Source: a virus (taxonomy: Duplodnaviria > Heunggongvirae > Uroviricota > Caudoviricetes). Taken from it: a stretch of DNA of 17,264 nucleotides. The stretch lies in IMG/VR virus record IMGVR_UViG_2917408641_000003, one strand, 5' to 3'. The notes beneath the pieces are model-generated. The model saw only the letters and a program-made list of their open reading frames with translations, did no database searches and was not told the origin of the DNA. The position numbers and the translations under genes were made by a program. This document shows positions 12,776-16,241 of this stretch, piece by piece. Within the stretch, counting starts at the first letter, position 1; every line of letters starts with the position of its first letter.

Positions 12776-13050
12776 TGTTTTTATGATGAGTCGCTTGTTT
12801 TCACCGTATTGTTCTTGTTTTTTTCAGTCGGTTAAGTGTTATGCTTAATATTTGAATGCTCAGTCGGAATGCATTCTCAATGGTGGCAACGTCACAACCC
12901 CTTGTCAGGAGAAGAGAGAAGCAACACCAAGGATATTCTTCGTTAACTTTACTGTCTTCTCCCTGCATGGTGAATTTTCTGAATGTGGATGATCGAGTTT
13001 CATATATCGTACGGCAGGAGTTTTTGCCCGGAGTTTCTGCAAGAGAAATA

Positions 13051-13057
13051 CATCGGG
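13051..13057. repeat. target-site duplication, left copy (CATCGGG) of IS66 copy 2
   Basis: CATCGGG abuts the IS left end and the identical heptamer abuts the right end at 15757..15763; IS66-family elements make 8-bp TSDs, exact element end is ambiguous by 1 bp. Confidence 0.5.
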
Positions 13058-13110
13058 GTAACCGGCTCATTTAAACCGTCTGGTCTGTTTCCTCCGGCTC
13101 TACAAAAATA

Positions 13111-13788
13111 ATGTCCATCATTTTTAATGGACACTATCGTATGAAACACCGGACCTGGATCACTGAAGCTTTACGTCTTCACTTTGAAGAACATTTACCC
13201 CGGGTTGTGGCCGGGCGTCGCCTGGGTGTACCAAAATCAACAGTTTGTAGTATGTTCGTGCGCTTTCGGAGAGCTGGCCTTTCGTGGCCTTTGCCCGCAG
13301 GCATGTCGGAGCAGGAACTTGATGCCTGCCTTTACGGACAATTTTCCACGGTACCAGTCGTACGTCCTGAAAGCACCGTTATATCCGAAGCCCCCGTGGT
13401 AAAAAAACGTCCCCGGCGGCCCAACTTCCCTTATGAGTTTAAAATCGCCTTAGTGGAGCAGTCACTGCAGCCCGGAGCCTGTGTGGCGCAGATCGCCCGG
13501 GAAAACGGAATCAACGATAACCTGCTCTTCAACTGGCGCCATCAATACCGGAAAGGTGGCCTGCTGCCTTCCGGAAAAAATATGCCGGCACTGCTTCCCG
13601 TGACGTTAACGCCGGAGCCGGATAATAAAATCCCGGCCCCCGCACAGGAACCAGAGCAGATAAATACACCGTCCGACAGTCTGTGTTGTGAGCTGGTTCT
13701 GCCGGCCGGAACTCTCAGGCTTAAAGGTAAACTGACGCCGGCGTTATTACAGACACTTATCCGCGAAATAAAAGGGAGCAGCCACTGA
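13111..13788 (+). CDS. tnpA: IS66-family orf1 (TnpA), long form with N-terminal HTH-like extension
   Basis: 225-aa ORF entirely inside the IS, stop overlaps tnpB start (ATGA at 13788); C-terminal 130 aa (from in-frame GTG 13396) contain the conserved IS66 orf1-type HTH region (FKIALVEQSLQPGACVAQIARENGINDNLLFNWRHQYRKG); true start could be 13111 (ATG), 13141 (ATG) or 13396 (GTG). Confidence 0.6.
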   Translation: MSIIFNGHYRMKHRTWITEALRLHFEEHLPRVVAGRRLGVPKSTVCSMFVRFRRAGLSWPLPAGMSEQELDACLYGQFSTVPVVRPESTVISEAPVVKKRPRRPNFPYEFKIALVEQSLQPGACVAQIARENGINDNLLFNWRHQYRKGGLLPSGKNMPALLPVTLTPEPDNKIPAPAQEPEQINTPSDSLCCELVLPAGTLRLKGKLTPALLQTLIREIKGSSH

Positions 13789-14135
13789 TGATATCTCTCC
13801 CTGCAGGTTCGCGTATCTGGCTGGTTGCAGGTATCACCGATATGCGAAATGGCTTTAACGGCCTGGCATCAAAAGTTCAGAACGTCCTGAAGGATGACCC
13901 GTTCTCCGGACACCTGTTCATCTTCCGCGGACGCCGGGGTGACCAGATAAAAGTGTTGTGGGCTGACAGTGACGGACTGTGCCTCTTCACCAAACGCCTG
14001 GAGCGGGGCCGCTTCGTCTGGCCAGTCACCCGTGACGGCAAGGTGCACCTTACTCCGGCTCAGTTATCCATGCTTCTTGAAGGTATCAACTGGAAGCACC
14101 CGAAACGAACGGAACGCGCTGGAATCCGCATATAA
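13788..14135 (+). CDS. tnpB: IS66-family accessory protein TnpB (orf2)
   Basis: 115-aa ORF, ATGA-coupled to orf1; 1 aa different from copy at 1..348. Confidence 0.85.
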   Translation: MISLPAGSRIWLVAGITDMRNGFNGLASKVQNVLKDDPFSGHLFIFRGRRGDQIKVLWADSDGLCLFTKRLERGRFVWPVTRDGKVHLTPAQLSMLLEGINWKHPKRTERAGIRI

Positions 14136-14154
14136 CCCGTTGTAAAGTGAGGAT

Positions 14155-15726
14155 ATGGACACCTCACTTGCTCATGAGAACGCCCGCCTGCGGGCACTGT
14201 TGCAGACGCAACAGGACACCATCCGCCAGATGGCTGAATACAACCGCCTGCTCTCACAGCGGGTGGCGGCTTATGCTTCCGAAATCAACCGGCTGAAGGC
14301 GCTGGTTGCGAAACTGCAACGTATGCAGTTCGGTAAAAGCTCAGAAAAACTTCGTGCAAAAACCGAACGGCAGATACAGGAAGCACAGGAGCGAATCAGC
14401 GCACTTCAGGAAGAAATGGCGGAAACGCTGGGTGAGCAATATGACCCGGTACTGCCATCCGCCCTGCGCCAGTCTTCAGCCCGTAAACCGTTACCGGCCT
14501 CACTTCCCCGTGAAACCCGGGTTATCCGGCCGGAAGAGGAATGCTGTCCTGCCTGTGGTGGTGAACTCAGTTCTCTGGGATGTGATGTGTCAGAGCAACT
14601 GGAGCTTATCAGCAGCGCCTTTAAGGTTATCGAAACACAACGTCCGAAACAGGCCTGTTGCCGGTGCGACCATATCGTGCAGGCACCAGTACCTTCAAAA
14701 CCCATTGCACGCAGTTATGCCGGAGCGGGGCTTCTGGCCCATGTTGTCACCGGGAAATATGCAGACCATCTGCCGTTATACCGCCAGTCAGAAATATACC
14801 GTCGTCAGGGAGTGGAGCTGAGCCGTGCCACACTGGGGCGCTGGACAGGTGCTGTTGCTGAACTGCTGGAGCCGCTGTATGACGTCCTGCGCCAGTATGT
14901 GCTGATGCCCGGTAAAGTCCATGCTGATGATATCCCCGTCCCGGTCCAGGAGCCGGGCAGCGGTAAAACCCGGACAGCCCGGCTGTGGGTCTACGTCCGT
15001 GATGACCGTAACGCCGGTTCACAGATGCCCCCGGCGGTCTGGTTCGCGTACAGTCCGGACCGGAAAGGTATCCATCCACAAAATCACCTGGCCGGTTACA
15101 GCGGTGTGCTTCAGGCCGATGCTTACGGTGGTTACCGGGCGTTATACGAATCCGGCAGAATAACGGAAGCCGCGTGTATGGCTCATGCCCGGAGAAAAAT
15201 CCACGATGTGCATGCAAGAGCGCCCACCTACATCACCACGGAAGCCCTGCAGCGTATCGGTGAACTGTATGCCATCGAGGCAGAGGTCCGGGGCTGTTCA
15301 GCAGAACAGCGTCTGGCGGCAAGAAAAGCCAGAGCCGCGCCACTGATGCAGTCACTGTATGACTGGATACAGCAACAGATGAAAACACTGTCGCGTCACT
15401 CAGATACGGCAAAAGCGTTCGCATACCTGCTGAAACAGTGGGATGCACTGAACGTGTACTGCAGTAATGGCTGGGTGGAAATCGACAACAACATCGCAGA
15501 GAACGCCTTACGGGGAGTGGCCGTAGGCCGGAAAAACTGGATGTTCGCGGGTTCCGACAGCGGTGGTGAACATGCGGCGGTGTTGTACTCGCTGATCGGC
15601 ACATGCCGTCTGAACAATGTGGAGCCAGAAAAGTGGCTGCGTTACGTCATTGAACATATCCAGGACTGGCCGGCAAACCGGGTACGCGATCTGTTGCCCT
15701 GGAAAGTTGATCTGAGCTCTCAGTAA
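14155..15726 (+). CDS. tnpC: IS66-family transposase TnpC (orf3)
   Basis: 523-aa ORF; differs from the 368..1939 copy at two residues (L->Q in RPK[L/Q]ACC, D->Y in APT[D/Y]ITT). Confidence 0.85.
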
Positions 15727-15756
15727 ATATCAATACGGTTCTGACGAGCCGCTTAC

Positions 15757-15763
15757 CATCGGG
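15757..15763. repeat. target-site duplication, right copy (CATCGGG) of IS66 copy 2
   Basis: Identical to 13051..13057 immediately outside the opposite IS end. Confidence 0.5.
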
Positions 15764-16241
15764 AGTTTTGTGTCGCTCATGTATCAGTGAAAAGATGATC
15801 TTGTTCAGTAAGTCTGGAGGGGATAGTACCGCCAGCATCATCGGCTTTGGCCCAGTAAAAAGAGACGCGGGGTGCCATATGTCATGTATGGGTTCAGATT
15901 GCGCATAATTCACCAGTACCGCTATAAATTGTAAAGAAGCCGCGGCACGTCGTATGCAAGAACGTACTGCGGCTGGCTGACGTACGCTCGATAGTGCGAA
16001 ATTGAATGAAAGTCAGCCGGAAATAATCTTACATAATTGCTGTGAAATTATTCAACTCATAGATTGTTTATTTCTGCCTGGATTGGTCTGAAATAGTCCC
16101 GAAATTTTCTCTAAAAAACTCGAAAAAAATGGTAACTAATTGAATGCATTAACATGCAATGGCACGTGTTTGGGATTAAAAGATGAGCGTAATTTTGGTT
16201 AACGTATTAATTTAAAAAGGTTTTCTTTTTTGTTGACGAGA

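Follow-up and report, generated by a model that had tools for sequence, protein, structure and literature searches.

Does the insertion sequence (IS) that lies just upstream of an ipaH-like gene in the viral record IMGVR_UViG_2917408641_000003 (17,264 nucleotides, Caudoviricetes; the whole stretch is hereafter called the window) mark an event that cost its carrier a gene or altered the expression of its neighbour? A sequence-only reading of the window had proposed that this IS66-family element, the second of two copies in the window and termed copy 2, entered by a discrete transposition event with duplication of a CATCGGG target, that it split a small open reading frame (ORF) of roughly 100 codons on the minus strand, and that it may have removed distal regulatory DNA of ipaH or insulated the gene from upstream sequences. 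The results presented here make it very probable that a single intact ISCro1 element inserted by ordinary transposition into a ykgJ-family remnant upstream of ipaH, which was already dead at the time, and that the insertion was most likely neutral. The window could be placed through its 607-aa ipaH-like protein, which maps to a single record, CP025979.1, the chromosome of Escherichia marmotae HT073016; a Shigella origin was rejected on this ground.

The identity of copy 2 as ISCro1 is assigned from the 2,699-bp length published for this element in HT073016, together with NCBI-annotated identical proteins. The three proteins, TnpA, TnpB and TnpC, are identical to WP_001339397.1, WP_000624622.1 and WP_000381395.1, which the NCBI pipeline labels as ISCro1 family. 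In the genome paper, ISCro1 is listed as a 2,699-bp member of the IS66 family that is present 19 times on the chromosome, twice on pEM148 and three times on pEM76 (PMC6650469, Table 2); both the element and its copy number in the strain are thus already published, and the event itself is an ordinary one. The NCBIfam models IS66_access_TnpA, IS66_TnpB and transpos_IS66 all exceed their cutoffs, HTH_Tnp_1 is found among the Pfam matches of the element, and the transposase encoded by tnpC carries zf-IS66, LZ_Tnp_IS66 and DDE_Tnp_IS66_C domains in addition to the DDE_Tnp_IS66 domain. The termini, which can be read directly from the window, run from GTAACCGG... at 13058 to ...CGCTTAC at 15756, the left end lying in the context ...GAGAAATACATCGGG followed by GTAACCGGCTCATTTAAACCG... 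and the right end in the context ...GGTTCTGACGAGCCGCTTAC followed by CATCGGGAGTTTTGTG.... The inverted repeats start with GTAA and are imperfect, with 17 of 22 positions agreeing between GTAACCGGCTCATTTAAACCGT and GTAAGCGGCTCGTCAGAACCGT by hand count from the alignment. Copy 2 differs from the copies in many E. coli genomes by a single base, at position 2692 of the element in the right inverted repeat, and it shares with the ISCro1 of E. coli and of HT073016 the length, the tnpA-tnpB-tnpC gene order and the imperfect GTAA...TTAC ends. The element is abundant: among 5,426 complete E. coli genomes, 3,018 contain a match, and the matching sites number 14,208 in all.

The repeat claimed for the two ends is present to the base, as one CATCGGG (13051–13057) abuts position 13058 and the other (15757–15763) abuts position 15756. 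It cannot be extended in either direction, the outer bases being A and C at 13050 and 15756 and G and A at 13058 and 15764, and the chance of an exact 7-mer bordering both ends is approximately 4^-7 = 6e-5. The length of the duplication was compared with that of eight copies of ISCro1 from different E. coli strains, each taken with 40 bp of flank. All eight are bounded by GTAACCGG...CGCTTAC in unrelated flanks, and their flanking repeats are a perfect 8 bp in six cases and match at 7 of 8 positions in one, while one copy has none. Shifted element boundaries, with extra end bases and a 5-bp repeat, were considered for copy 2 and rejected, since these eight other copies fix the ends at GTAA...TTAC. 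A duplication of 8 bp is usual for the IS66 family (ISfinder, work on IS679). In contrast to most of the ISCro1 copies sampled elsewhere, the eight bases that flank copy 2, ACATCGGG on the left and CATCGGGA on the right, have a repeat of only 7 bp in common, and at the left junction, where GAAATACATCGGG is followed by GTAACC, a single extra A would give the canonical 8 bp. This may be due either to a 7-bp stagger, as tentatively assumed here, or equally to an 8-bp duplication that later lost the junction A. The 7-bp length is a small oddity of this event, and neither a property of the element nor a new mechanism.

Removal of the element together with one copy of the repeat joins position 13057 to 15764, and the uninterrupted sequence predicted in this way was observed at three places, all of which carry ...GAAATACATCGGGAGTTTTG... 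with one CATCGGG. The first empty allele is carried by pEM76, a plasmid of HT073016 (416 bp across the junction, 97% identity), the second by a Joint Genome Institute (JGI) metagenome contig, L010 (2.2 kb at 91% identity, continuing into an ipaH gene), and the third lies at the second chromosomal ipaH locus of this strain, L026, in the form of the exact 20-mer GAAATACATCGGGAGTTTTG. The single CATCGGG in every empty allele argues for a discrete, simple insertion in which no DNA was deleted, and the proposal of a transposition event with target duplication is well borne out, as excision recreates a sequence that exists uninterrupted elsewhere. The right junction was also found in an independent short-read contig from SRR9172102 (L015), which opens with 27 nt of the IS and continues into CATCGGGAG..., and a contig of GCA_012294685.1 ends at 15760, inside the right repeat; the insertion is thus seen in more than one assembly. 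A 31-mer across the right repeat and its flank gave no exact match in the genome and metagenome contig collections scanned, and a contig from SRR6001584 (L017), which ends at 15870, was ascribed to the paralogous 416-bp module and is uninformative on the presence of the IS. On the other side, the current 89-aa left half-ORF (12801–13070) was not on record in the protein look-up, which leaves the left junction without independent confirmation. The coordinates of all features are collected in Table 1.

Table 1. Features of the ISCro1 copy 2 insertion, its target DNA and the neighbouring ipaH-like gene (positions in the window).
Feature	Position	Strand	Remarks
Left copy of 7-bp target duplication CATCGGG	13051..13057		Single in empty alleles
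Right copy of 7-bp target duplication CATCGGG	15757..15763		Right junction independently reproduced in SRR9172102 contig L015
Intact ISCro1 (IS66 family), copy 2	13058..15756	+	2,699 bp
Left terminal inverted repeat, GTAACCGGCTCATTTAAACCGT	13058..13079	+	Alignment with reverse complement of right end; boundary seen in eight E. coli copies
Right terminal inverted repeat (reverse complement GTAAGCGGCTCGTCAGAACCGT)	15735..15756	-	Alignment and E. coli copies
tnpA, 225 aa	13111..13788	+	NCBIfam IS66_access_TnpA, 295.8 bits; identical to E. coli copy
tnpB, 115 aa	13788..14135	+	Pfam TnpB_IS66, E 4.7e-40; identical to E. coli copy
tnpC, DDE transposase, 523 aa	14155..15726	+	Pfam DDE_Tnp_IS66, E 2.5e-103; identical to E. 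coli copy
Decayed ykgJ-family pseudogene, 5' part	15764..15906	-	ATG at 15906, then equivalent of residues 18 to ~55
Same ykgJ-family pseudogene, 3' part	12939..13057	-	Equivalent of residues ~56-95
100-codon ORF of the sequence-only reading	12801..13057 (downstream half) + 15764..15913 (upstream half)	-	Judged spurious: alternative frame of ykgJ remnant
ipaH-like NEL E3 ubiquitin ligase gene, 607 aa	10815..12638	-	Pfam NEL, E 1.3e-74; NCBIfam IpaH_Shig, 537.5 bits vs cutoff 550
MxiE-box-like motif, GTATCGCTTTTTGACAG	12759..12775	-	120 nt upstream of ipaH ATG, 282 nt from IS
Stretch resembling 5' 135 nt of CssrB, divergent from ipaH	12771..12906	+	Rfam RF02799, 21.1 bits vs gathering score 76
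Match resembling 3' hairpin of CssrB	15904..15971	+	RF02799, 28.2 bits, E 0.006; stem-loop ~15932-15966

These observations are best explained by a course of events in which ISCro1 jumped by ordinary cut-and-duplicate transposition into the cargo end of a prophage remnant in E. marmotae HT073016, where a staggered cut of the target left the 7-bp CATCGGG repeat, one base under the length usual for the element. The target was what remained of a phage-borne gene of the ykgJ family, already inactivated by a stop codon within the frame, a deletion that shifts the frame and the loss of cysteines.

The nature of the target was assessed on the joined sequence. When compared with E. coli YkgJ by tblastn, it displayed 64% identity over residues 18–95 (E 5e-31), with the entry point of the IS at the equivalent of P56-R57-C58. 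Upstream of this region, bases 1–26 of ykgJ align at 15906–15881, and a frameshifting gap comes next. A sensitive nucleotide search with the window segments 12940–13057 and 15764–15830 likewise led to ykgJ: 4,962 of the 5,426 complete E. coli genomes matched the query, and most of the listed E. coli matches fell on ykgJ at 76–80% identity. Relative to the intact E. coli gene, which encodes a YkgJ-family cysteine cluster protein of 109 aa, the target aligns from the ATG to codon 95 with a nucleotide identity of 83%, whereas the last 14 codons are unrecognisable. The lesions are directly visible in the YkgJ frame, which contains a stop codon and a gap of three codons and in which cysteines are replaced (C7Y, C10Y, C71R and C81F, with the C13-C14 stretch falling in the frameshifting gap), and an intact frame with the conserved cysteines, that is, the N-terminal C-x-x-C-x-x-C-C and the later ones, was not found in the target DNA. 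Mismatches to E. coli ykgJ are distributed 11/4/12 by codon position, which is mildly informative. Compared with intact ykgJ, the target DNA is best regarded as a pseudogene remnant and not as a functional member of the family. The alleles on pEM76 and L010 have the same stop, gap and lost cysteines as the window, and these common lesions show that the ykgJ-family gene was dead before ISCro1 arrived; with the remnant already non-functional, the insertion destroyed no gene. E. coli TUM1886 (L025) carries an intact, prophage-borne ykgJ-like gene at the same position, just after the tail-fibre genes at the prophage right end, and this arrangement likely represents the ancestral state.

The ORF of 100 codons that the sequence-only reading had seen as split by the element does reconstitute exactly, with its GTG start and the quoted residues, when 13057 and 15764 are joined on the minus strand, but the evidence speaks against its being a gene. 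If it were one, the IS would have split a genuine protein gene running from the GTG at 15913 to a stop at 12801, the loss of which may matter to the prophage or its host. Besides the exact reconstitution, such a gene is favoured by a frame that stays open not only in the joined window sequence but also in pEM76 and L010, in the last of which a gene caller predicted its final 76 codons (P0001). This 76-aa call is, however, the sole relative of the 100-aa product among 5.8 billion proteins and comes from the same locus, and the product has no Pfam or NCBIfam match. Substitutions between the alleles in this frame are 7 nonsynonymous versus 2 synonymous, close to the ratio of unconstrained sequence, and by eye no Shine-Dalgarno-like sequence was seen before either the GTG or the internal ATG. 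The L026 paralogue breaks the frame with several stops, whereas the YkgJ frame is readable there for residues 1–52. The GTG lies 7 nt upstream of the ykgJ-like ATG at 15906 and in another frame, and the strong homology to YkgJ on the same strand points to the YkgJ frame as the ancestral coding frame; the pseudogene fragment annotated by the Prokaryotic Genome Annotation Pipeline (PGAP) at the homologous spot in enterohaemorrhagic E. coli (EHEC) follows the YkgJ frame as well. A genuine protein gene is thereby largely refuted and appears highly improbable, and the ORF is better described as a chance open frame that overlaps the ykgJ-family pseudogene.

With no gene lost, the question turns to ipaH. 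The element begins 419 nt upstream of the ATG at 12638, in line with the distance of about 420 bp given earlier. The suggestion that distal regulatory DNA was removed fails: by comparison with the empty alleles, the element went in precisely and no bases are missing. The DNA between ipaH and the IS contains a putative MxiE box, which matches the consensus GTATCGTTTTTTTAnAG (PMC9769918) at 15 of 17 positions, the two mismatches being at positions 7 and 13, and which is the sole match in the window at up to three mismatches, with 0.13 expected by chance. On reading the sequence, a -10-like hexamer, TAAATT, follows 20 nt after the box, a spacing similar to that in the MxiE-regulated ipaH promoters of Shigella flexneri, as is the leader of approximately 90 nt. 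In Shigella, the transcript starts 33 nt after the MxiE box, natural boxes with three or fewer differences are functional, and replacement of T7 in the ipaH9.8 box halved the activity (PMC3299695). A survey reported the ipaH regulatory regions of non-human Escherichia to be without MxiE boxes (PMC9046306). Further MxiE-box-like motifs were observed at approximately 9020–9036 of L026 (GTATCGTTTTTTAACAG, 16/17) and in L010 (GTATCGTTTTTTGACAG, 16/17), and that of the pEM76 paralogue is poorer (GTATCATTTTTTAAAAT).

The sequence of this promoter region is intact: the MxiE-like box, the -10-like hexamer and the ipaH leader are untouched and all lie at least 282 bp from the IS. The genes of the element are transcribed away from ipaH, and no sigma-70-like promoter facing ipaH was found at its left end. 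Since the transposase genes are directed away and the MxiE-box-like promoter at a distance of 282 bp is untouched, the insertion is most likely neutral for ipaH expression. Insulation of ipaH from upstream sequences, which had also been suggested, is conceivable, given that MxiE-dependent genes of Shigella are known to be silenced by H-NS (PMC9769918), but nothing at this locus supports it.

A regulatory consequence could take another form, in that the insertion might separate ipaH from DNA further upstream, such as H-NS nucleation sites, or break a divergent unit resembling the gene of CssrB, a Shigella small RNA (RF02799), so that rightward transcription would enter tnpA. The IS does have on either side a stretch similar to one end of CssrB, and these stretches share its position and orientation relative to the ipaH gene and the MxiE box. 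In the genome of an enteroinvasive E. coli (EIEC; L023 3128–3307), a full CssrB scoring 230 bits is located just upstream of and divergent from ipaHe, starting from the complement of the MxiE box, and Northern blotting has detected CssrB in S. flexneri 301 (PMC3071730). Moreover, a sigma-70-like site on the plus strand of the window (12759–12787) overlaps the MxiE-like box, tnpA has the same rightward orientation, and H-NS silencing is, as mentioned above, documented for MxiE-dependent genes in Shigella. The two colinear, same-strand pieces in the window, however, remain far below the threshold of 76 bits (28.2 and 21.1 bits), and they are parted by the ykgJ remnant of approximately 0.3 kb in addition to the 2.7-kb IS. 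Because the CssrB-like parts are approximately 0.3 kb apart even in the empty alleles, no RNA of CssrB size is expected and the stretches are not called a CssrB gene; the box, hexamer and leader of ipaH, as described, are intact. That the IS abolishes a divergent non-coding transcript, couples tnpA expression to the ipaH promoter region or alters the H-NS silencing of ipaH therefore seems improbable, if slightly less so than the loss of a genuine protein gene. The arrangement in Shigella looks like a deletion derivative of the E. marmotae order of ipaH-upstream region, ykgJ remnant and hairpin, from which the ykgJ remnant would have been lost.

Several points weigh against a neutral insertion of ISCro1 into a dead ykgJ-family remnant, which nevertheless remains the strongly preferred explanation. 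The duplication of 7 bp, compared with 8 bp in most other copies, indicates that the event was slightly atypical or that one base was lost later. An orthologous empty site, that is, the pphA-adjacent locus without the IS, was not found, and the empty alleles are paralogous or metagenomic. The left junction is supported by a single long-read (PacBio) assembly. Of the four alleles examined, three keep the 100-codon ORF open, and part of it was once predicted by a gene caller. Finally, a neutral effect on ipaH expression is a deduction from sequence only.

Copy 2 occupies the cargo end of a prophage remnant that borders pphA. To the left of the IS are myovirus-type tail and baseplate genes, a tail-fibre assembly gene and, on the opposite strand, the ipaH-like gene. 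To the right, positions 15814–16281 are approximately 81% identical to the right ends of E. coli prophages beside pphA-yebW-yebV-rsmF, and in EHEC the cargo gene at the corresponding spot is nleC. From the stem-loop onwards, at 15932, there are short matches to the right extremities of phages phiP27 and Rac-SA53, and a weak match to SraC/RyeA (16181–16271, minus strand, 21 bits, E 0.88) is found just before pphA (16416–17072, plus strand), which is beside yebW and yebV. Horizontally acquired DNA is known to accumulate at the ryeA/ryeB locus, which neighbours pphA, and the location fits the right attachment end of a prophage. A third IS66 copy, considered because of the tnpA-sized 225-aa ORF at 16395–17072, was rejected: there is no nucleotide similarity to the IS, and the ORF is pphA, encoding a Metallophos protein.

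The other element in the window, copy 1 (positions 1–1969), is truncated where the window ends and has 99.5% identity to copy 2. Its leftward extension is found in L018 (5759–9895), where the full-length element is interrupted by an IS4 (12-bp repeat, CCCCGGCGGCCC). Copy 1 has no target duplication, its flanks being TTAAGCGC and CAAAAGCT, and it connects chromosomal DNA on the side of dadAX-cvrA-ldcA-emtA directly with a phage tape-measure gene that is truncated. The missing duplication and this join indicate that copy 1 marks a rearrangement, and that the prophage is a remnant cut by an IS-associated rearrangement. The two copies have the same orientation and bracket an 11-kb segment comprising the tail genes and ipaH. 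On pEM76, an ISCro1 of its own (L001 6557–9255) is located 140 bp further out from the empty-site paralogue, again with no target duplication, and IS4 and IS1414, the latter carrying astA, are close to the ipaH neighbourhood; these elements around ipaH suggest that the plasmid neighbourhood has been heavily reshuffled.

HT073016 has 11 ipaH-like genes, two of which are chromosomal (PMC6650469). Within the ipaH-like gene of the window, four tandem 60-nt units (12025–12264), 60–83% identical to the reference copy, correspond to leucine-rich repeats. At the second chromosomal locus (L026 8227–8902), the called ipaH product of 542 aa starts approximately 675 bp downstream of the homologous N-terminus (MLPVNNTTPST...) and promoter region, so that a disruption or a wrong gene call is possible for this copy. 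A 175-aa tail-fibre assembly protein of identical sequence (window 10217–10744, plus strand; also L026, L028 and L029) precedes different ipaH-like genes, with products of 607, 542 and 580 aa. The pairing occurs in two HT073016 prophages and in lambdoid prophages of other genomes, located next to pphA or to dinI-isochorismatase-aspS. This suggests that unrelated phage tails exchange the assembly gene together with its ipaH cargo as one cassette, by movement or by recombination.

By itself, the insertion is of little weight, as ISCro1 is among the commonest IS of Escherichia and 24 copies are already published for HT073016. Its analysis is of corrective value, in that a false small gene is removed, the interrupted DNA is recognised as dead, ykgJ-like cargo at a prophage end, and the known promoter elements of ipaH are found to be untouched. 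The MxiE-like boxes upstream of the E. marmotae ipaH genes may serve work on the evolution of ipaH more than the insertion does, and the apparent origin of CssrB from the order of ipaH-upstream region, ykgJ remnant and hairpin may likewise interest researchers in ipaH evolution.

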